Origin: Escherichia coli
Lineage (GTDB): Bacteria; Pseudomonadota; Gammaproteobacteria; Enterobacterales; Enterobacteriaceae
Length of the DNA stretch: 64,000 nucleotides
NCBI RefSeq assembly: GCF_003790525.1
Contig: NZ_CP033635.1
Strand: one strand, 5' to 3'
This document shows, piece by piece, positions 8,738 to 55,592 of the stretch (position 1 is the first letter of the stretch; each line of letters opens with the position of its first letter). The translations under genes and the position numbers were made by a program. The notes below the pieces were generated by a model, which saw nothing but the letters and a program-made list of their open reading frames with translations, made no database searches and was not told where the DNA came from.

Positions 8738-10060
8738 TTATCCGTTAGTTGTTAAGTTATTGACCTTGTTGGCGGCAATAACAAAAGGTAAATAGATCAT
8801 TGTCGCCACACCTAAACATAAAAAACCCACCAGTAACGCCAGCCAGTTTCCCCCGGTTCCGAGGAAAGCAATTAAAGGTCCGGGCGTAGTCCAGGGCACG
8901 GCATAAGCAACCGGTGGAATAATTTCCATCGAAACAAAGAAGTAACCAATGGCACAGTTAACAATAGGAACCATAATAAACGGCACCATCATGATGGGGT
9001 TAAGTACAATAGGAAGGCCGAACATTATCGGTTCATTGATATTGAAAATACCGGGGATAAATGACATTTTTGCCAGATCACGGTATTCCGCACGCTTAGA
9101 AGCGATAAAAATAGCCAACAATAACCCCAACGTCATACCTGAACCGCCGCAGTTGGCGAATGCATCATTAATAGAAGTCCAGGTAATCGGATATGGCGCG
9201 CCCCAGGTAGTGCCGTGTTGAGCGGCCCAGGAGAGATTCTCCAGATTAGCCTCAGAAAAAACAGTTTCTCGAATTGCCGAGGTGGTATTAGGTCCGTGGA
9301 TCCCCAGCACCCACAGGAAATTACCCACAGCCCCCAGGATAATTACCGCAAAGATATTCGTTCCCATATGTTTGAGCGGCGTCTGGATTAATGTGTAAAT
9401 GAGGTCGTTTAATCCTGCCGGGGATATCAGTGTCAGGCAATAATTAAGTGCGGAAAAGAACACCATGACAAAAAATATTGGCAATAAAACTTTAAATGAA
9501 CGCGCTACCGCAGGAGGTACAGCTGCCGGCATCGTGATGGTGATTTTGGGGTTTCGAGCTAAGCGACAAAATATTTCACTGGTGATCAGTGCAACGATAA
9601 CAGCAACAAATAACCCCTGCGCGCCGAGATATTTGGTCGTCAGGAATGCTTGCCCATCTATCATCTGATATGGCGTATATACAATAAAAAATGCTCCTAT
9701 TGCCGTTAATCCGCATAAAAGATCATCTTGCTCATAGCTAATCGCCATATTCCTGGCGACCAGGAAAGCAATCATAATTGACATGATATTTACAGAACCA
9801 TTCATTACCGGAGTAAAAATAGCTTGTGCTTTTTCAAGGTTGGGGAAAACGCTGTTCAGATGCAGCAGCCCGGCAATAAAGCCGTCGGGCGATAATATGG
9901 CAAAGTTAATTAATATAATTAATGAGCTTGCCATGATAATTGGAAACGTAAAAACGAATCCATCTCTCACCGCTGCAACATGTTTTTGTGAGTTTAACTT
10001 GATAGCAACTGGAACAAGAAAACGTTCCATTCCACGTTCGAATGAGGCCATTAATCCCAT
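8738..10060 (-). CDS. PTS lactose/cellobiose-family EIIC permease
   Basis: 440 aa polytopic membrane protein, ChbC-like. Confidence 0.8.
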   Translation of the reverse strand: MGLMASFERGMERFLVPVAIKLNSQKHVAAVRDGFVFTFPIIMASSLIILINFAILSPDGFIAGLLHLNSVFPNLEKAQAIFTPVMNGSVNIMSIMIAFLVARNMAISYEQDDLLCGLTAIGAFFIVYTPYQMIDGQAFLTTKYLGAQGLFVAVIVALITSEIFCRLARNPKITITMPAAVPPAVARSFKVLLPIFFVMVFFSALNYCLTLISPAGLNDLIYTLIQTPLKHMGTNIFAVIILGAVGNFLWVLGIHGPNTTSAIRETVFSEANLENLSWAAQHGTTWGAPYPITWTSINDAFANCGGSGMTLGLLLAIFIASKRAEYRDLAKMSFIPGIFNINEPIMFGLPIVLNPIMMVPFIMVPIVNCAIGYFFVSMEIIPPVAYAVPWTTPGPLIAFLGTGGNWLALLVGFLCLGVATMIYLPFVIAANKVNNLTTNG

Positions 10061-10173
10061 TTTTTATACCTGTTGTTTTGGATATTTATACATCCCAATA
10101 AAGCATGTATGCCATATCCATTTTATGATGTGTGAAAAGTTAGTTCAGGTAATAGTTTAATAAAATTAGATTC

Positions 10174-44365: not shown

Positions 44366-44391
44366 AATTAACTACACCATTAACTACACCG
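44366..44391 (+). repeat. left copy of 26-bp direct repeat AATTAACTACACCATTAACTACACCG (tandem 12-mer; candidate integrase arm-type sites)
   Basis: exact copy at 55567-55592; followed in both copies by a related ACAACGTG(G/A)AACAA motif. Confidence 0.6.
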
Positions 44392-45466
44392 TTCGGCGCA
44401 CTGTATGAAACAACGTGGAACAAATAGACACAAGCGGCAGGCTATACCGTTATCATTTTTCAGCTATCCGTCATGAAGCTGGTGGATGATCACGGATAAC
44501 CAGGCATCTACAGCGCCTTAAAAAGCTGAACCCGACAAACATTTCTGCTTATCGGGTCCGATCGCTCTTTCTACTCGTGGCAGATGAGTTTACTAGGAAG
44601 GGGGGAACATTGTATCAGGCTATCCCCTTTCTGTGCTGATTCGGCTGGTGAATGATCTACTTGGGGCACTACACTTTTCGGATAGTGCGGGTATCCGGTT
44701 TTCTGCCTCATCGAATTTTAAGCCTTCTGACGGCCTGTATATCATTTCCTGTGGAGTTGCCGCCCTGATAGCGAATACTGCGGCAGCATGTGATTTACCC
44801 CCCGTTCTGTTGATGTTTGATGTGGCTGGTTGATGTGCTGCCATGTTTTCCGCCAATGGTGGAAAAGCCCACCAGCGCAACGCAGGACGCATAAAACCAT
44901 TGCGATGACTCTGGACGCAAAACCACGTTTAACGATGTTTTGCACTGAACCAGAATACTGTTCGTTTTTGTCTCGATGTCCGTACGTATTACGTCCGCAC
45001 CTAATCCGGCATCATGCCCACCAGCGTAACGCATTTTTTTAATTTCGTGGCTGTGCGTCCACCAGCTACGCCGGAATGGGGTATTCCGTTTCAACGGAAC
45101 AGGTATGACGAACATAATCGCACCTTCTCCCGAAAACGGTGCGACCTGCATCATCGAAATGGTGATTCAGCTACTCGGCGATTTTCACCATTCAGAATCT
45201 GGCGGGTGAGTTATCCAGCTTCCACCAATGGGGGATTCTGGAACAATCAACGGGTTACGCCTTATCAGCAAAAAAGCACATCAACTGTAAAGGAAATCGT
45301 TATGGTTGCTGGTGGGCTGCGTCACCATCATGGTGATGATGCTGTCCAGTCAGCCGGAACGGTTGAACAGGGTGGCTATGGGTCACTCTGTTGTGCGTTA
45401 TTTGCGTGATCCTGGTACGGGGTGACTATCTTTCAGATAGTCGGTTGCCTGGTTACACGAAAAAAT

Positions 45467-45769
45467 TTACTTCCTGCGTTTATCCTGCTTTGTATGCCCG
45501 TGCTGAATGCCCCGCAGTGGATCTTCTTTTTTCAGGTCGATCCCCATGTCCGTTAGTGTTTTTGTGGCGGCGGTTCTTATGGCACAAATCAGGTCTCTTT
45601 CCGGTTCCCGGGTTATGGTTGCCTTCCGGATGCATGCCGTTCGTCGTTCCGTTACATACTGACGCGCTTCATCACTTGCCGCCTGTTTCAGTAACTCACC
45701 CCAGCGATTAGCCGCCCGTCGCCATAAACCTTTCGCTTCCAGTTCTTCCGCTTTGTCATCATGCACCAT
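45467..45769 (-). CDS. ANR-like small regulator, paralog 2 (start at MVHDD.. assumed)
   Basis: MVHDDKAEELEAKGLWRRAANRWGELL... parallels the protein at 49352-49624. Confidence 0.55.
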   Translation of the reverse strand: MVHDDKAEELEAKGLWRRAANRWGELLKQAASDEARQYVTERRTACIRKATITREPERDLICAIRTAATKTLTDMGIDLKKEDPLRGIQHGHTKQDKRRK

Positions 45770-45883
45770 AAGCATAATCCCATTGATACCTGTTAACTCT
45801 GAATGGTTGGTTTCTGTTCTTTTGATAATTTCCCGCATAGCTTATTGTATGACAGTACTGTCCCACAATAAGGAGTTGCACGC

Positions 45884-46837: not shown

Positions 46838-47272
46838 TTACTGTTCTGTATCGGCTGATTGCTCCATGCTGGCACGGCGAACGCTTACGGCATGACGCCA
46901 CCCAGCCAGAAAGCCAGCCATTTTATTTCGTGCCTTGCTCACATCTTCCGGTGAATAGCCGTAAATATGCAAACCTTCATCAAATCGATGTTCTGTTTCT
47001 TCACTGGAGTACTCGTCACGCTCAGATGAAAGCAGCCTCGCAAACATAATTTTTTCCAGCGCACTGGTTTCTACGTGATATCCGATGGTCTGAAGATGGC
47101 TTTTACCTGAATACCAAAGCAATGTATGCCCGATGTGATAACCGCCAGACTTTCCGCGATCCGCATTAAGATACGGCATCCCCTGTTTGGTCCATGCGCG
47201 AATAGTGGTTCTGTTAACCTTGAAATGTTCAGCTATTTCCTGCTGACTTACAAAACAAGCTTTATCAATCAT
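46838..47272 (-). CDS. Nu1-like small terminase-type DNA-binding protein (wHTH N-terminus, divergent C-terminus); possibly a packaging-redirection factor
   Basis: VSQQEIAEHFKVNRTTIRAWTKQGMPYL aligns with lambda Nu1 VNKKQLADIFGASIRTIQNWQEQGMPVL; 144 aa versus 181 aa for Nu1. Confidence 0.65.
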   Translation of the reverse strand: MIDKACFVSQQEIAEHFKVNRTTIRAWTKQGMPYLNADRGKSGGYHIGHTLLWYSGKSHLQTIGYHVETSALEKIMFARLLSSERDEYSSEETEHRFDEGLHIYGYSPEDVSKARNKMAGFLAGWRHAVSVRRASMEQSADTEQ

Positions 47273-47334
47273 AATGTTACCTTAACTGCATGGTTAAATA
47301 TCAATCAAGTGGTGGTGGTGTCACCTTCACGGAA

Positions 47335-47405
47335 AAACGTCATAAATAGCGAAAACGTGCGAGGTCGACGCCCCGTAACGGGTCCACATGCCGGAAAGGA
47401 CCCGC
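47335..47405 (-). other. lambda-like cos site copy B, inverted relative to copy A; cosN-like 12-mer (reverse complement) at 47362-47373
   Basis: reverse complement reads GGGTCCTTTCCGGCATGTGGACCCGTTACG GGGCGTCGACCT CGCACGTTTTCGCTATTTATGA; lies about 70 bp upstream of the terS-like start in the lambda cosN-to-Nu1 orientation. Confidence 0.7.
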
Positions 47406-47428
47406 AAAAAAAGCCGGATTTCTCCGGC
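47406..47428 (-). terminator. intrinsic terminator after the capsid/decoration genes
   Basis: minus strand GCCGGAGAAATCCGGC followed by U7. Confidence 0.65.
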
Positions 47429-47502
47429 CTTGTCTCAGATGGTTTTCAGTATGCGATAGATGTCGCCGTCATCGCCCTGGTTTGTGCCATCGTTCCCCCT
47501 GC

Positions 47503-47838
47503 TTATCGGGCCAGCGGCTGAACGGATACGCCGGAACCCGCAAAGGCGGCGCATTTTTTCGCATCGGTGTCGACGCTCTCAGGCCAGTTAACGGCGGCAA
47601 TATTGAATATCCCCGTCTTGTAACACTGTGCTGATTTCTGCTTTGACGTGTCCACAGGGTACGAGGTCAGATAAACAGCCTTGCCAGATTCCTTACCATC
47701 CCACGCCTTAAACTCGCCATTGTCTGCCAGCATCAGCGGGGTAAATTCCTGAATAACGCCAGCATCAGCGGCAAAATGTACCAGCGTCGTGGATACCTGT
47801 TGGCTGCCTGAAAATAACTCAATGTATGGAGCGTCCAT
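47503..47838 (-). CDS. lambda gpD-like head decoration protein
   Basis: TPLMLADNGEFKAWDG and AFAGSGVSV match lambda gpD TPLMLDTSSRKLVAWDG and AFAGTAISIV; 111 aa. Confidence 0.8.
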   Translation of the reverse strand: MDAPYIELFSGSQQVSTTLVHFAADAGVIQEFTPLMLADNGEFKAWDGKESGKAVYLTSYPVDTSKQKSAQCYKTGIFNIAAVNWPESVDTDAKKCAAFAGSGVSVQPLAR

Positions 47839-47849
47839 AGAATCCCCCG

Positions 47850-48905
47850 TTAAGCAATTTTGACGGTAACAAATTTGCGAATATCTGCCGGTACAGGCTG
47901 CGGTGCGCTGTGCGTCTGCACGTACTCAATCGCCGGATCGCCGTCCTCAATCCAGTTTTTCGGGTAGTACATGTTTTGCGTTGCGCCCGTTCTTACCGCT
48001 TCCTGATCCATAATCGCACCATATGCCACCAGCCCTTTATTGTTGGTGTTACCCAGGACCAGCAAATCAGGCTCAAGGAAATATTTTTCGGTCCCGTCGC
48101 TGTCAGTGTATTTGCCGGAATAGACGATAAGGGCCAGATCACCAAGATAGCCTTTAAAGCTCACCACTTCGCCCAGGTTTTTACAGGCCAGCTCGGCGGC
48201 GGATTCTGATCCACGGGAAAGATCGTACAGTTCACGGAATTTTTTAAAGCTGCGTAATGTGCGCCATACCTCACCGCCCATAATCATGACGTTGGCGGGG
48301 CAACCTGCCTGATCAGCATAAAGCTCGATGTCATAGATTGGGTCGTGCATGTCTTTATCCTGCTGGGACCATTTTTTACCACTGGCCTGCTGTATGATGC
48401 AGTTTTCCGGTATTTTCCAGTCGATTTCATAGCGTTCTATGCCTTCGCCCTCAATGATGTTTTTTCCGGTCGTTACCGCATTCACCGCCAGCCATTCCAC
48501 GCGCGCCTTAATGGCGTTTATCTGGCGGCGCATGTTGCCAGTAATCAGGCGCATACGGCGGTAAGTTGGATCGTTAAGCTGTGCCGGATCTTCTCCATCC
48601 ATGCGCATGATGGTCTTTGTTGGATCGATTTCGTGCTTTGGCTTCATGTAGCCTGGTTTAATCGTGCTGGTTTCGTACCCTTTATCGCGCTGGACCTGAC
48701 TACCCACCATAGGAGAACAGAACGCTGACATCGTAACCTCTTCAATGTCCAGGGTGTCCAGCATGATGTTTTGGGTGTTGAAGGTCGCCACGTTCGGGAA
48801 AAACAGCGTGGTAAACAGCGGACTAAATTTATATTCCGAAATATCCCCGCGATTCAGGTACGCGAAAAGCTGGTTAGTTGTAAGTGCCTTTGCTTTGCCT
48901 GTCAT
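47850..48905 (-). CDS. lambda gpE-like major capsid protein
   Basis: 351 aa; KPGYMKPKHEIDPTKT, DPTYRRMRLITGNMRR and YPKNWIEDGDPA...SAP...FVTVKIA align with lambda gpE along the whole length. Confidence 0.85.
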   Translation of the reverse strand: MTGKAKALTTNQLFAYLNRGDISEYKFSPLFTTLFFPNVATFNTQNIMLDTLDIEEVTMSAFCSPMVGSQVQRDKGYETSTIKPGYMKPKHEIDPTKTIMRMDGEDPAQLNDPTYRRMRLITGNMRRQINAIKARVEWLAVNAVTTGKNIIEGEGIERYEIDWKIPENCIIQQASGKKWSQQDKDMHDPIYDIELYADQAGCPANVMIMGGEVWRTLRSFKKFRELYDLSRGSESAAELACKNLGEVVSFKGYLGDLALIVYSGKYTDSDGTEKYFLEPDLLVLGNTNNKGLVAYGAIMDQEAVRTGATQNMYYPKNWIEDGDPAIEYVQTHSAPQPVPADIRKFVTVKIA

Positions 48906-49111
48906 TATTCACCTCCGTGAACCTGATTGATACCCAGCGCCGCACGCAAATAGGTGCGCACCTGCCAGCCTGTTGACGGCTCAACCATCGCCAGCGGATC
49001 AAGTCCTGCCGCAATGCCTGCTTTTACATTCTGCTGGTGGCGTTCCTTGAGCGCCTCCACGATGTCGGGGCTTATGTAGACCGTCACCCCGCCTTTTTTC
49101 TCTTCTGCCAT
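48905..49111 (-). CDS. hypothetical 68-aa protein translationally coupled (TAATG) to the capsid gene
   Basis: stop overlaps the gpE-like ATG; first gene of the capsid operon. Confidence 0.5.
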   Translation of the reverse strand: MAEEKKGGVTVYISPDIVEALKERHQQNVKAGIAAGLDPLAMVEPSTGWQVRTYLRAALGINQVHGGE

Positions 49112-49145
49112 AGTCAGAAATTCCTCTTTGACTTAAAAAATCATA

Positions 49146-49163
49146 ACTGGATGTTCATCCAGT
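49146..49163. promoter_or_regulatory. perfect palindrome ACTGGATG-TT-CATCCAGT upstream of the capsid operon (candidate operator/activator site)
   Basis: 8-bp arms with 2-bp spacer, about 35 bp upstream of the first operon ATG (49111). Confidence 0.4.
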
Positions 49164-49322
49164 CCTGATTATAATCATGATTGCATTTTGCGCAACAATA
49201 TTGAGTTACGTTGCAAATTATGAAATGATTATCCCGATCATGTGTGTCAGTTCACCATAAAAAACCTCGTATACAAAAGCCCCATAAGCCCCCTGTGACC
49301 TTATCGGGCTTTTTTTAGGCGT

Positions 49323-49344
49323 AAAAAAGCCGGATTGCTCCGGC
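49323..49344 (-). terminator. intrinsic terminator after the ANR-like gene (same stem family as 47406-47428)
   Basis: minus strand GCCGGAGCAATCCGGC followed by U6. Confidence 0.6.
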
Positions 49345-49351
49345 TGTGTGC

Positions 49352-49624
49352 TCACTTCTGCGGGTAGTTGCGCCATATTGCTTTGCCAATACCAGCTATC
49401 CCCATTTGTTTTTCAGTGCGATTAACTGACCTTTTCAGAGCGCCTAAATCATCCGGCGGCTCCGGTGGCCTCTGTGCCTTACGGATACATTCCGCGCGAC
49501 GCATTGCCACCTGTTCGCGCTCCTTGTCTGTCTCCACCAGCCTCATAACTTCACCCCATCGCGCCGCCGCCCTCCGGTAAAAGCCTTTTGCCTCGAGTTC
49601 CTCCGCTATGCGGTCATGTACCAT
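49352..49624 (-). CDS. ANR-like small regulator, paralog 1 (start at MVHDR.. assumed)
   Basis: MVHDRIAEELEAKGFYRRAAARWGEVM...; longer ORF start would overlap ssb. Confidence 0.55.
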   Translation of the reverse strand: MVHDRIAEELEAKGFYRRAAARWGEVMRLVETDKEREQVAMRRAECIRKAQRPPEPPDDLGALKRSVNRTEKQMGIAGIGKAIWRNYPQK

Positions 49625-49634
49625 CGTCACCCCC

Positions 49635-50045
49635 TCAGAACGGAATATCATCACCGTAAGGGTCATCGCCTCCCGCTGGTGGCTGATTACCCTGTGTGCC
49701 TGTGGTTTTGCGTCTGTTCCCGCCAGGACGTGCCGCACGGGCACTGATTACGCTGTCTGCAATAACCTGCCAGCCCTGCCGCGTTTCCCCGTTCTGTCCG
49801 GTCCACTGGCTGACCTGCATCGTGCCGGATACGCTGGCAACGTCGCCTTTTTGATGTTTAGCCAGAAAGTCGGCCTGTTTGCCAAATGCGATGACCGATA
49901 ACCATAACGTCGCCTGTCCGTCCTGTGCCTGGCCGCATGGTAAAGATACCGCCATACGCGCCAGCGTCATCGGTGTACCCTTACTGGTCTGTTTTACCTG
50001 CGGGTCGTCCACCAGCCGCCCGTAAGCTGCTATCTGTGCTGTCAT
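49635..50045 (-). CDS. single-stranded DNA-binding protein (SSB-like OB fold with acidic DDIPF tail)
   Basis: 136 aa; C-terminal ...DPYGDDIPF typical of SSB; Gly/Pro-rich linker. Confidence 0.75.
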   Translation of the reverse strand: MTAQIAAYGRLVDDPQVKQTSKGTPMTLARMAVSLPCGQAQDGQATLWLSVIAFGKQADFLAKHQKGDVASVSGTMQVSQWTGQNGETRQGWQVIADSVISARAARPGGNRRKTTGTQGNQPPAGGDDPYGDDIPF

Positions 50046-50611: not shown

Positions 50612-50659
50612 AAATTTACCTTCGGTATTTTGTCCTGCTGTTCGATTTTTATTCATTGC

Positions 50660-50870
50660 TCACCATCTCTCACTTTTACTACTCACTTTTTAAAGCGTCT
50701 CGCTTCGTCTCACTTGAGATTTTTGTGTTTTGTATGTGCATGTTTCATAAGTGTTTTTTCACTGCTCACTTTTGAGCATGTATACAGGTGAGAAAGTGAG
50801 TAATTGTGTTAATATTTTGTAAAAACCTCACCATTACTCACTTTTACTACTCACTTTTTACAGTGGTCCT
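50660..50870. repeat. iteron array (CTCACTT heptamers, two 24-bp direct repeats) - candidate replication origin of the element
   Basis: at least 6 direct and 2 inverted CTCACTT copies between 50669 and 50856; CTCACTTTTACTACTCACTTTTTA at 50669 and 50839; directly 3' of the primase-helicase gene. Confidence 0.6.
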
Positions 50871-52264
50871 ACATCATCACCATCAATGTAAATCACGGCG
50901 TCTTTTTCCAGTTTGGCTAACCATCGCCGCATATTTTTCACGTCATACCCAAGCCGTTTCATGTCATCACGTAACAGCGGGATCGTGCACTTGTCGCCGT
51001 TCTGTGTGCGTGAACGGATGCACCCCCATAGCGCGGTATGGTTTTCCGTCTTGTTGCCTGCCTCCTCGATGCGCTCCAGTTCAGCAGGGGCGCGGGGAAC
51101 GTCAATCACCACCATGGACACAATTTCTTCGCCATCTGTATCGGTGAACACCTCCACGCTTTTAAGGTCGTATGCACTCTCTTTTGGCTCCTCTGCGTCC
51201 TTCATCTTCGTACACGCCGCAACCAGTGCTGTAACGTCTGAATTTTCCCTGCTGATTCGGTACTCTGCATCAAGCGCGGCACGGAATGCACTGGAACCAC
51301 GCGCCCCCTTTGTTTCATCCTTGCCGGAATGGTGAACCACCAGCACCGTGGCCCCTGTGGCCTGCTTTATCGCGTCACACCCCTGGATAAATGCGCCCAT
51401 ATCACGGGAATCATTTTCATCATTCCCACCAAAGCAACGGGCCAGCGTGTCGATCACAATCAGCCGCACATTTTCGCCCGTTCTGCTCTTAACAAGTCCG
51501 GCAGTCCTGATAACCTGCTCCACATAGTCAGGCGATGCAGGGAAAACAGGCGCGTTAATGATGCACAAATCTGTAACCACCTTGTCGTGGGTTATCTCCC
51601 ACGCCTTAACGCGGCGTTTTACGCCCATGCTGCCTTCACCAGCGATATAGATAACCGCACCCTTACTTACCCTGCGGCCTCCCCATGCCATACCTGTGGC
51701 AACATGGCACGACCAGGAAATGGCGAGGAACGATTTATAAGAACCGCTGGCCCCGTAGGTGCTGCATAATGACTCAGCCGGAATAAGCCCCTTAATGACG
51801 TAGCTTTGCTGCGCATCGAATCCCTCAGAACCCCATGAGATGGGAAGTGTGATTTTTCGCTTTCCGCCATTCATGACCAGGCTTTCCCCTCTCTCCCATG
51901 TTTCCCGTAGTCGTGGTAGCTGGTCGCTCCAGTCCTCCAGCAGTTCGAAATTTTCAGAAAGTAGCCGCGCCTCCTGGACTCCGGCGATCGCCAGTTTTGT
52001 GGCAATGGTCAGCATCTGCATATCGTCCAGGTTTCCGGCGCGTATGACCTTTACCCTGTATCGTCCTTCATCAACAATCTGTAAGTTGTCCAGTTCGCTT
52101 AACTGATAACGGCCCAGATAAACCGGAGGGATGGGATCGCCTGCTTTTTTGGCCTGTGCAATCATGTAATGTTCTGCAAAGGAGTGAGCATTATCACCCG
52201 CAAAAATAACCGCCTCAGTGTGTTTATCTTTCGGTAACAGTTTTACGTTCGGTGCAAGTTTCAT
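50858..52264 (-). CDS. replication initiator: primase-associated N-domain + RecA-like/AAA helicase (pri-rep type)
   Basis: 468 aa; Walker A GASGSYKS, Walker B LIVIDTL, VLVVHHSGKD; C-terminal wH-like tail. Confidence 0.8.
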   Translation of the reverse strand: MKLAPNVKLLPKDKHTEAVIFAGDNAHSFAEHYMIAQAKKAGDPIPPVYLGRYQLSELDNLQIVDEGRYRVKVIRAGNLDDMQMLTIATKLAIAGVQEARLLSENFELLEDWSDQLPRLRETWERGESLVMNGGKRKITLPISWGSEGFDAQQSYVIKGLIPAESLCSTYGASGSYKSFLAISWSCHVATGMAWGGRRVSKGAVIYIAGEGSMGVKRRVKAWEITHDKVVTDLCIINAPVFPASPDYVEQVIRTAGLVKSRTGENVRLIVIDTLARCFGGNDENDSRDMGAFIQGCDAIKQATGATVLVVHHSGKDETKGARGSSAFRAALDAEYRISRENSDVTALVAACTKMKDAEEPKESAYDLKSVEVFTDTDGEEIVSMVVIDVPRAPAELERIEEAGNKTENHTALWGCIRSRTQNGDKCTIPLLRDDMKRLGYDVKNMRRWLAKLEKDAVIYIDGDDVGPL

Positions 52265-52548
52265 TTCTTACCCCCTGCGACCAGCATTTCACGGATTTTG
52301 CGGATATAACTTGCAGCACGTTTCTGATTAACGGCTTTACGATGGCCCACCAGCGTGAAATCACGCCGGAACTGATAAACAGGCATAACGCAGTCATATT
52401 CGTAGCCTTCACGGCGGTAAGTGATGCGACGTTCCTCCACGCCCTTAATCATTACCGTGCCGCCGTAGTTATCACGGAAAATATCGCCGGGACGGATTTC
52501 AGGACGAGCGGGGCCGCTGGCATTAACGCCAGAATTTTTATTTTTCAT
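52261..52548 (-). CDS. hypothetical protein (95 aa) translationally coupled to the replication gene
   Basis: stop overlaps the downstream start; basic protein. Confidence 0.45.
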   Translation of the reverse strand: MKNKNSGVNASGPARPEIRPGDIFRDNYGGTVMIKGVEERRITYRREGYEYDCVMPVYQFRRDFTLVGHRKAVNQKRAASYIRKIREMLVAGGKK

Positions 52549-53752: not shown

Positions 53753-53941
53753 TTAGTGAACTGCCTCGCAGCTTTCCTTCCATGCCAGAACTTCGGATAA
53801 AGACCAGCCAACGGAACGACCGCCCAGCTTACGCCGTGATGGGAATTGTCCGGCCTTTTCCAGGCGGTAGCGGCATGAGCGGCTAAGGCCTGTTAGCTTT
53901 TCGCATTCTTTTTCACGTATAAAGCGATCAGTGCTTAACAC
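53753..53941 (-). CDS. alpA: AlpA/Vis-family phage regulatory protein (excisionase-like)
   Basis: 62 aa; ...IREKECEKLTGLSRSCRYRLEKAGQFPSRRKLGGRSVGW... typical AlpA fold signature. Confidence 0.8.
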   Translation of the reverse strand: MLSTDRFIREKECEKLTGLSRSCRYRLEKAGQFPSRRKLGGRSVGWSLSEVLAWKESCEAVH

Positions 53942-54315: not shown

Positions 54316-55566
54316 TTATTTTCTTCTGGCTACTGGTAGCGTGGTTACGTTTTCATGTGCTCCCGCCAGTATCTCCAACCGCTCCACCCACATATCCAGC
54401 GCATTGCGTTTCGCATCCAGATAACGGGAATGATTATAAACTCGCTGCATTCCTGGCATCTGGTGGCCTGTAAGCTGCTCCACGACGTGAGGATCCACGC
54501 CTAAATCGTTCAGCATCGTTGTAAAGGTGCGCCGGATGTCATGCAGTGACCATTGAGGGTGTTTTAGCCTCCTGTGCGCTAATCTGCCGTACTGCGATAC
54601 GCTGGCCTCCTGTTTCACTTCCCCCAGTAATAAGCCCGTGTGCCTGTTCTGCTCCACCAGCCGCGTGACGAACGGCAGGATCGCTTCCGGTATGGGCCGG
54701 AATATTGCGACCTTCGTTTTGCTGTGCTCCTTCGGAACGGTCCAGAGCATTTCCGTGAAATCCCACTCCCCGATCTCCGATAACCTCAGTTCTACCGTCC
54801 TGGCTCCGAAGACAATCAGGAGGCGGATTAGTGCGACGTAGTAAGGGGAAAATATTTTTTTGTCCAGTGCCTGCAATAATTCGCCCAGTTCTTTGGTGCT
54901 TAAGACACGTTCGCTTATATCCGGTTTTTTCCCAACGTCCGCCACGTTCAGATCGTCCAGAACGTTGCTGATTGCATAGCGCCGCCTCCGGCAAAACTTA
55001 AGCGCCTGTTTGCACGCCTGTAGCACGAATCCGGCAGTAACAGGCGTTCGCTTTGCCACCCGATCAAAACAGGCCAGCCAGTGCCGTAGCTCGCATTTAT
55101 CCAGCGGCATAGCACCAATGTGCTGTATTACGTGATTATTAAGTCGCCTTTTCAGGGCGATATAATCCACGCGGTTTTCCTTTACGTAAGACTCAAGCCA
55201 GTAGGTGAGCGCATCTCCAACCGTTACAGGCTTTAACGCTTCCTGCATGGTGTAATTCATCTCATGACGTGGATTTTTCCCCTCAGCCAGCCATGCGCGA
55301 CACTGGGCGGCTTTTTCCCTGGCTGATTTCAGGCTCAGATCAGGATAATTTCCCAGCTTAATACGTTCCGGTCGTGTCTCTCTTCCCGTTCCGGCCCTGT
55401 AAGTGAAATACCAGGTTAAAAGGCCGCTGGTTGAATGCCTGACGCTCAGATTTCCACCGTCATTAAGAAAGGCTGTTTTTTGGGCGGGTGTGCCGTTGAT
55501 TTTCCTTAGCTGTGTATCGCTCAGCTTGTTAAGTGCTCTGGTCATAATTTTGAATCCGGTCATCAC
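54316..55566 (-). CDS. int: tyrosine site-specific integrase (P4-type)
   Basis: 416 aa; C-terminal catalytic region with ...HDIRRTF... and ...LTGHQMPGMQRVYNH... (R..H..R..Y). Confidence 0.88.
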   Translation of the reverse strand: MMTGFKIMTRALNKLSDTQLRKINGTPAQKTAFLNDGGNLSVRHSTSGLLTWYFTYRAGTGRETRPERIKLGNYPDLSLKSAREKAAQCRAWLAEGKNPRHEMNYTMQEALKPVTVGDALTYWLESYVKENRVDYIALKRRLNNHVIQHIGAMPLDKCELRHWLACFDRVAKRTPVTAGFVLQACKQALKFCRRRRYAISNVLDDLNVADVGKKPDISERVLSTKELGELLQALDKKIFSPYYVALIRLLIVFGARTVELRLSEIGEWDFTEMLWTVPKEHSKTKVAIFRPIPEAILPFVTRLVEQNRHTGLLLGEVKQEASVSQYGRLAHRRLKHPQWSLHDIRRTFTTMLNDLGVDPHVVEQLTGHQMPGMQRVYNHSRYLDAKRNALDMWVERLEILAGAHENVTTLPVARRK

Positions 55567-55592
55567 AATTAACTACACCATTAACTACACCG
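55567..55592 (+). repeat. right copy of the 26-bp direct repeat AATTAACTACACCATTAACTACACCG
   Basis: exact copy of 44366-44391, directly upstream of the int start codon. Confidence 0.6.

Follow-up and report, generated by a model that had tools for sequence, protein, structure and literature searches.

In the window analysed here, a stretch of 64,000 nucleotides of the Escherichia coli contig NZ_CP033635.1 (assembly GCF_003790525.1), a phage-inducible chromosomal island (PICI) of the EcCICFT073 type carries a gene for a protein of 68 amino acids (aa; MAEEKKGGVTVYISPDIVEALKERHQQNVKAGIAAGLDPLAMVEPSTGWQVRTYLRAALGINQVHGGE) immediately ahead of its gpE-like major capsid gene. We propose, tentatively and as a reading that we hold to be quite possible though short of probable, that this leader protein is a ribbon–helix–helix (RHH) autoregulator of an insulated capsid operon. 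The operon would be a self-contained unit made up of a promoter, the leader gene (a member of the c1498 family, named after the orthologue in CFT073), the gpE-like and gpD-like genes and a terminator, and we regard the three genes as insulated because terminators lie on both sides of them (two in succession upstream and one downstream; Table 1). The leader, as an RHH dimer, would bind dyad-symmetric DNA at the promoter of its own gene and thereby place the unit under autoregulation, in the manner of Arc, Mnt, CopG and the RHH antitoxins. We place this binding in the control region because a small RHH gene that comes first, overlaps the next gene and lies behind dyads that cover the promoter has the standard layout of an autoregulator.

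A capsid-protein homologue is encoded in 21 of the 29 reference Gram-negative PICIs (PMC10111431), and the PICI homologue is dispensable for transfer and for interference with lambda. If the capsid module is a separately insulated transcription unit, equipped with conserved dyads, a promoter that does not vary and an RHH-like leader protein of its own, the question of why islands keep capsid genes becomes testable (that is, when the promoter is on, what binds there and whether the leader responds to the helper). A promoter set inside a terminator-like hairpin would be a compact means of insulating the unit from upstream read-through, and the leader would become more notable still if it were shown to link capsid-protein levels to transcription.

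A small gene invariably coupled to the capsid gene

An earlier reading of the window, made from the sequence only, described a 68-codon frame that ends in TAATG over the gpE-like start. The gene is real, lies on the minus strand and is conserved; its TAA (48907-48905) and the capsid ATG (48905-48903) have one base, an A, in common. Across 85 loci taken from IMG/VR and public assemblies, the leader gene stands directly upstream of a gpE-type gene without exception, the junction reading TAATG in 83 of them and ATGATG in the other two, both from Salmonella, and the gpE-type PICI loci in which the two genes overlap span four genera. The 351-aa downstream product is a PHROG ‘major head protein’ that shares at most 47% identity with any phage capsid protein in the collection searched and is essentially identical to PDB entry 3BQW (E 5e-229), which is titled ‘putative capsid protein of prophage’; for this PICI protein, a crystal structure is thus already available. 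In view of this downstream partner, a full-length HK97-fold capsid homologue (Phage_cap_E, 3BQW), and of the absence of a PADLOC match, a type II toxin–antitoxin module was rejected.

The overlap couples capsid translation to that of the leader. It had been taken to imply stoichiometric co-expression, a step too far: the capsid gene has its own strong Shine–Dalgarno sequence (GGAGG, 6 nt before its ATG), whereas the leader has AGAGGA at 10 nt from its ATG, so translational coupling does not fix a 1:1 ratio. The capsid GGAGG lies within GGAGGTGAA, which encodes the leader C-terminal GGE, and this G-G-E is nearly invariant in the family. A hairpin in the window 5′ untranslated region that could sequester a Shine–Dalgarno sequence (AGUCA..UGACU) was rejected as unconserved, CFT073 and most loci having TTACT.

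The window protein is about 94% identical to its orthologue c1498 (WP_000796960). Homologues from E. coli, Salmonella and Edwardsiella are 55–96% identical, with G36, L37, L40, S46 and G48 invariant among them. Among 1.84 billion representatives, an exhaustive profile search matched just 13 proteins, one of which is a eukaryote-like repeat protein and was judged spurious; as far as sequence comparison reaches, the family is enterobacterial and very small. A tblastn search of 50,697 phage genomes gave no match to the protein, and we therefore assign the family to satellites rather than to phages. A one-genome-per-species scan returned a single match (AGIAAGLDP in a TetR regulator of an Acidimicrobiales metagenome-assembled genome), which was rejected as due to chance. 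No family in Pfam, NCBIfam or PADLOC covers the protein, its PHROGs entry (phrog_3255) is listed as ‘unknown’, and none of the papers that we found assigns a function to c1498. Equating c1498 with the regulator RgdR was also considered and rejected, as RgdR is c1493, a different gene.

Some of the leader–E–D trios are inserted in lambdoid prophage late genes, namely a portal gene in Edwardsiella (locus L003, GCA_053360915.1) and terL in Salmonella (locus L005), in both cases in the same orientation as the helper late genes; islands of this type are the helper-embedded PICIs described previously (PMC10111431). In the Edwardsiella locus, the E and D genes of the island consequently lie within 5 kb of those of the helper. 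A 65-aa distant relative of the leader follows a RepA helicase of the same type on a 4.5-kb Logan contig (ERR11525680; locus L088), where it heads an operon with two small open reading frames and the genes for a major head protein (phrog_617) and a tailspike or tail fibre of 644 aa; this head protein belongs to another family than the gpE-like one and is encoded two genes away from the leader relative, not adjacent to it. Two further database proteins carry parts of the leader. One (P0040) is a natural fusion, at ..PPEPS.., of a PerC-like N terminus to the C-terminal 26 residues of the leader, which implies that the entire promoter and palindrome region has been deleted in some strains, and the other (P0035) has the C-terminal half of the leader behind an unrelated N terminus.

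Predicted fold of the leader protein

AlphaFold models built from 15–17 sequences place a strand at residues 9–13 and helices at 15–34 and 47–59, in the monomer and in a fused dimer alike. The dimer was modelled because the strand–helix–helix order suggested an RHH protein, with two leader copies joined via a 25-residue linker and a paired alignment. The fused model has one strand per copy (9–13 and 102–106) and pLDDT values of 80–87 in its structured parts; as it contains no other strands, these two must pair with each other. The modelled leader thus shows both the N-terminal β-strand with two helices and the paired antiparallel strand ribbon by which RHH dimers are recognized. The best structural matches of the dimer model are tandem RHH DNA-binding proteins (single-chain Arc, TraY and AvtR), with VirC2, TraM and omega ranking lower, and its top match in BFVD (probability 0.90) is a 91-aa lipothrixvirus protein that we take to be an AvtR homologue. 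The sequence itself offers weak hints of an RHH protein, all in the same register: residues 4–23 score below the gathering threshold against BrnA_antitoxin (E 0.017) and RHH_1 (E 0.064), and hhalign against ten RHH proteins aligns residues 5–27 on the strand and helix A only (P 0.007). The leader is probably of the RHH type, an uncharacterised addition to a class of regulator that is already known.

Structure prediction for the leader by itself thus gave an RHH-like dimer in place of the candidate scaffold or capsid-size determinant that the sequence-only reading had inferred. That inference drew on the genes upstream of the lambda capsid gene, an analogy that is loose, the gene just upstream of E in lambda being D. 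The leader has no sequence similarity to the lambda-type gpC/Nu3 protease-scaffold (hhalign probability 0.09), and fold searches of PDB and BFVD matched it to no scaffold or capsid-associated protein.

A predicted promoter embedded in conserved dyads

The features of the control region are given as read on the coding (minus) strand, and their conservation was counted over 58 usable distinct upstream regions (59 were parsed, one of them wrongly). TATAAT is present in 58/58, including Edwardsiella and locus L091, in which the palindrome discussed below has diverged. The simplest reading of this invariant hexamer, together with TTGC 16 nt upstream of it, is a sigma-70 promoter, and from the −10 spacing we predict transcription to start at ~49163-49160 (that is, within the 5′ arm of the inverted repeat). 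Alternative promoters farther upstream (GATAAT, CATAAT and AATATT hexamers) were rejected, being poorly conserved or having poor −35 partners.

Over the −35 and spacer lies a dyad, O1, of the form (A/G)TTGC-N7-GCAAT, which would be the likeliest operator. It is exact in 53 of the 58 regions and differs by a single base in the remaining five, it occurs in every lineage inspected (the distant L088 among them, where its distance to the start codon is similar too), and the island has one copy only. We regard O1 as the stronger candidate site because it accompanies the protein family everywhere, even where cargo genes change. A perfect 12-bp palindrome, TGATTATAATCA (49166-49177), is centred on the −10, and O1, this palindrome and the one noticed in the sequence-only reading form three dyads with centres ~17 bp apart.

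The last of these is ACTGGATG-TT-CATCCAGT on the plus strand (its central TT reading AA on the coding strand) and lies 35 nt before the leader ATG at 49111. By our estimate a perfect 8+8 inverted repeat with a fixed 2-nt gap arises by chance about once per 64 kb, and inverted repeats of 8 nt or more number 28 in the island; taken alone, the palindrome is therefore not significant. It extends, however, to 15-nt arms (49139-49153 and 49156-49170) that are 87% complementary, and this extension, a fold better than that of shuffled sequences, conservation of the core CTGGAT..ATCCAG in 49/58 regions and changes on both arms together lift it above chance. The predicted hairpin has a free energy of −13.8 kcal/mol in the window (z −3.5 against shuffles) and −16.4 kcal/mol in CFT073 (z −4.9), the window outer stem having two imperfect positions relative to that of CFT073; across loci, the hairpins have free energies between about −9 and −22 kcal/mol and are accompanied by a U-run. 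Of the distinct upstream regions, 56 contain five or more consecutive T. In an alignment of 39 distinct upstream sequences (38 of E. coli type and one from Salmonella), 94.7% of cells are paired, falling to 24–46% when partner columns are slid, and 4 of the 15 pairs are altered on both arms (for example, CAT/ATG to CAC/GTG, TAT/ATA or CAGGAC/GTCCTG), with a covariation score reached by 0/500 shuffles, a statistic that is inflated by the phylogenetic relatedness of the sequences and hence indicative only. The cells that depart from Watson–Crick pairing comprise 20 G-U (in the sense orientation), 9 A-C and 18 G-A, and because G-U exceeds A-C the departures favour the sense RNA strand. Beyond these sequences, the core is kept in two loci (L089 and L094) as ACTGGAT-GAAA-ATCCAGT, damaged in L093, absent in Edwardsiella and rewritten in L091 as CACTGTAT..ATTCAGTTG without a U-run. 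A search for covariation of the strand residues of the leader with variants of O1 or the palindrome revealed none.

The palindrome may be a second binding site, an RNA element or both. As RNA, it has the stem-loop and U-tract of an intrinsic terminator (a 13–14-bp stem, a 4-nt loop and an abutting U6, flagged by the terminator scan), yet the base of the stem is not G+C-rich: the outer stem is A/U-rich (AAUCA/UGAUU) and G-C pairs occur in the core only. We suggest that RNA reading through from the perC-like gene would form the full 13–14-bp hairpin with U6 and terminate there, at what would be the third terminator in a row, whereas RNA begun at the embedded promoter would form only the 7-bp 5′ hairpin (−7.5 kcal/mol for the core alone, five nucleotides from the U-run), too far from the U-run to terminate. 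The proposal that the palindrome is a site for a late activator or repressor may hold in part. It is conserved, lies in the promoter region and plausibly has a regulatory role; on the other hand, it sits over the predicted +1, which is not an activator position, it forms a terminator-like RNA hairpin together with its flanks, and a better-conserved dyad lies 20 bp upstream.

Weighing the autoregulator against other explanations

Several points count against an RHH autoregulator acting from this promoter. The −35 is weak, and the start position is a prediction only. No sequence match reaches the curated RHH thresholds in Pfam, NCBIfam or a PDB profile search; the strand has no basic residue (those pointing outward are T10, Y12 and S14) and the protein as a whole is close to neutral. 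Between the helices lies a highly conserved 12-residue loop (GLDPL..EPS.GW) that canonical RHH proteins lack, and as it is the most conserved part of the family, it gives a hint of binding to a protein and not to DNA. In Edwardsiella, the protein retains the strand GGVTVYIS, yet the promoter is without the palindrome. In the hairpin, the 5′ arm of the outer stem is more variable than the 3′ arm, a G-A mismatch occurs in 15/39 sequences and the relatedness of the sequences tempers the shuffle statistics. Finally, a role related to the capsid would account just as well for the absolute linkage to the capsid gene. We judge it unlikely that the leader is a capsid-assembly factor, whether a mini-scaffold, a chaperone, a determinant of capsid size or a CpmB-like protein competing with the helper scaffold, but this reading keeps some probability because the linkage is absolute and the conserved loop could bind protein. 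In each of the gpE-type PICI loci examined, the leader gene comes directly before the capsid gene and overlaps it, a major head protein is encoded even in the operon headed by the distant relative in L088, and the helix–loop–helix part with its invariant loop could form a protein-binding surface; SaPI1 CpmB is a comparably small helical dimer. Set against this, neither the gpC/Nu3 comparison nor the fold searches gave support and the dimer model resembles DNA-binding RHH proteins, the capsid protein of L088 is of another family and two genes away, EcCICFT073 is packaged in phage-sized capsids and deletion of c1499 or c1500 left interference intact (PMC6092414), and when post-ori genes were cloned and expressed one at a time, c1503 was the only one to block lambda (PMC6739421). 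The phenotypes published for the prototype argue against such a role with lambda or phi80. More speculative, and in our view very unlikely, is a dual role in which the RHH body represses the capsid promoter while the GLDPL..EPS.GW loop binds the island capsid homologue or the helper procapsid. If this were true, free capsid protein would set expression of the capsid genes, an antitoxin-style conditional autoregulation of a structural gene, which would provide a sensing and feedback logic for a dispensable capsid module and explain the unbroken gene-to-gene coupling.

The control region also admits other explanations. The palindrome might serve as DNA only (that is, as a site over +1 for the 68-aa protein, AlpA, a PerC-like protein or a helper factor), the RNA hairpin being incidental. 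Its span from −7 to ~+25 of the predicted promoter would then be the classic position of a repressor, its arm centres, 10 bp apart, would suit two RHH dimers, and it would form part of the series of three regularly spaced dyads. We judge this unlikely: the wobble departures favour sense RNA and a conserved U-run adjoins the stem, Edwardsiella lacks the palindrome and L091 has a rewritten form of it though the strand residues of the protein are unchanged, no second copy of the palindrome exists in the island, and PerC is missing from several islands that keep the control region. We attach a low probability to an antitermination model, in which the start of transcription lies ahead of the hairpin (perhaps close to a conserved CATAAT at 49222-49217), an RNA of ~75 nt ends at the hairpin and U6, and the capsid genes are on only when a helper Q-like antiterminator or late-operon read-through overrides the terminator, as has been proposed for helper-embedded PICIs. 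The hairpin abutting U6, with its compensatory changes, does have the canonical terminator shape, and related islands do lie inside helper late genes in the same orientation (portal in L003 and terL in L005; PMC10111431). The lambda pR′-tR′ late leader (6S RNA) likewise places a promoter-proximal AATC..GATT hairpin and TTTT before morphogenetic genes, and a 13-nt stretch, GCAAAATGCAATC (49179-49191), is identical to lambda 44713-44725 (L096 914-926), immediately 5′ of the tR′ hairpin; this identity may be due to chance or may go back to an ancestor shared with a lambdoid late leader. However, the PICI hairpin overlaps its own −10, the island has no Q gene, and the region shows no wider homology to any phage late region and no Rfam family, so that mimicry of lambda pR′, with 13 nt of identity near tR′ in another geometry, was set aside except as part of this low-probability rival. 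TATAAT is invariant even where the hairpin or U-run has decayed (L091 and L003), which fits a −10 better than the flank of a stem; the upstream hexamers are poorly conserved (GATAAT, GATAAA and GATCAT); the window island lies in tqsA rather than in a prophage; and c1498-c1501 are expressed in CFT073 without phage induction, rising together at 37 °C (PMC12890032).

Relation to known systems

The closest counterpart is c1498 of EcCICFT073, which occupies the same position ahead of c1499/c1500 and has the same promoter, palindrome and TAATG junction. The window island differs from EcCICFT073 in being inserted in tqsA rather than next to phoQ, in carrying a RepA-type helicase rather than a primase and in lacking the 137-aa fourth gene of the unit. 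In gene layout, the leader resembles P22 Arc and Mnt, CopG of pMV158 and the antitoxins ParD, RelB and BrnA, in that it is short and comes first, its stop overlaps the following gene and dyad symmetry lies over its own promoter; the modelled leader also shares with these proteins a strand–helix–helix that dimerises via the strand. A putative DNA binder, it departs from the RHH autorepressors in its subthreshold profile scores, its 12-residue insertion between the helices and its lack of a basic strand residue, and in being followed by a capsid gene instead of a toxin or replication gene. SaPI1 CpmB, P4 Sid and SaPIbov5 Ccm are likewise satellite-encoded small proteins or capsid homologues of packaging modules, whereas no sequence or fold similarity of the leader to them was found and, unlike size-redirecting satellites, the prototype EcCICFT073 makes no small capsids with lambda or phi80 (PMC6092414).

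The island and its other genes

The island occupies 44366 to ~55592. Direct repeats of 26 bp, AATTAACTACACCATTAACTACACCG, at 44366-44391 and 55567-55592 split tqsA and are the att sites of the island, and as they lie 11,201 bp apart, the island measures ~11.2 kb. A region of 2.6 kb around the locus matches E. coli PKF11 and PKF4 at 100% identity and CFT073 at 94.8%, in the latter at 1.385 Mb, where the match is EcCICFT073, the prototype Gram-negative PICI; phage genomes gave no DNA-level match to this region. The gene order is int, alpA, a DUF4222 gene, a RepA-type helicase gene, an SSB gene, a perC-like gene, the leader–E–D trio, a cosN-like site and rpp (Table 1), the CFT073 names being c1498 for the 68-aa gene, c1499 and c1500 for the capsid and decoration homologues and c1503 for Rpp. 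The island has the integrase, alpA, replicase and origin, unidirectional genes, cos with rpp, size of ~10–15 kb and att sites of its own that characterize Gram-negative PICIs, and the whole element is free of lysis and tail genes. It is an already known kind of satellite, and the findings on the leader gene leave its classification unchanged.

Table 1. Coordinates in the window of the capsid unit, its control region and other island features
Feature	Position	Strand	Basis or remark
Integrase gene	54316-55566		Domain match
alpA	53753-53941		Domain match
DUF4222 gene	52261-52548		Domain match
RepA-type helicase gene	50858-52264		Domain match
SSB gene	Between the helicase and PerC-like genes in order		Domain match
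PerC-like gene	49352-49744		Domain match
Intrinsic terminator after the perC-like gene, AGCCGGAGCAATCCGGC and T-run	49323..49345	minus	Terminator scan
Second hairpin, bidirectional-looking terminator, AAAAGCCC..GGGCTTTT, 14-nt arms	49275..49313		Inverted repeat search
AT-rich conserved box CATTTCATAATTTGCAAC, upstream of the promoter	49210..49227	minus	Kept in E. coli lineages, L089, L093 and L094
Dyad O1, GTTGCG-CAAAA-TGCAAT (TTGC-N7-GCAA), over the −35 and spacer	49180..49196	minus	Candidate operator
Predicted −35, TTGCGC (3/6), 16-nt spacer	49190..49195	minus	TTGC invariant in the alignment; under the promoter-scan threshold
Predicted −10, TATAAT (perfect)	49168..49173	minus	
Extended inverted repeat, AATCAGGACTGGATG-AA-CATCCAGTTATGATT	49139..49170	minus	Predicted 13–14-bp hairpin as RNA
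Perfect palindrome (hairpin core)	49146..49163	minus	Predicted start within its 5′ arm
T6 run abutting the extended stem	49135..49140	minus	Terminator-like U-tract
Shine–Dalgarno sequence of the 68-aa gene, AGAGGA	49122..49127	minus	Within conserved GTCAAAGAGGAATTT
68-aa leader gene (c1498 family, phrog_3255)	48905..49111	minus	Product a predicted RHH dimer
Shine–Dalgarno sequence of the capsid gene, GGAGG	48912..48916	minus	Encoded by leader codons G66-G67
gpE-like major capsid homologue, 351 aa (c1499 homologue)	47850..48905	minus	Pfam Phage_cap_E, E 2e-49
gpD-like head decoration homologue, 111 aa (c1500 homologue)	47503..47838	minus	Pfam HDPD, E 4e-17
Intrinsic terminator closing the three-gene unit, GCCGGA-GAAA-TCCGGC and T7	47406..47428	minus	75 nt after the gpD-like gene
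cosN-like site, GGGCGTCGACCT	47362-47373		
Rpp homologue gene	46838-47272		PDB 6HLK match, E 4e-32

The terminator that closes the unit is a near-duplicate of the perC terminator and, in the window, follows the decoration gene directly, in place of the 137-aa gene of the CFT073 unit (47272-47503 of the window against 9473-10062 of locus L001); the 137-aa gene is annotated as a head–tail connector in some strains. PADLOC matched neither the 68-aa protein nor the module, and an Rfam scan of 44–56 kb returned no family except a chance symR match. The island has two PerC-family genes (the one listed in Table 1 and a second at 45467-45838), in addition to the DUF4222 gene, which is the window counterpart of RgdR/c1493, a 99-aa DUF4222 protein reported to regulate type III secretion and motility. 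The segment at 50659-50863, directly downstream of the helicase gene, contains 37-nt direct repeats, CTCACCAT..CTCACTTTTACTACTCACTTTTTA, and nested inverted repeats, and is probably the iteron-bearing replication origin of the island.

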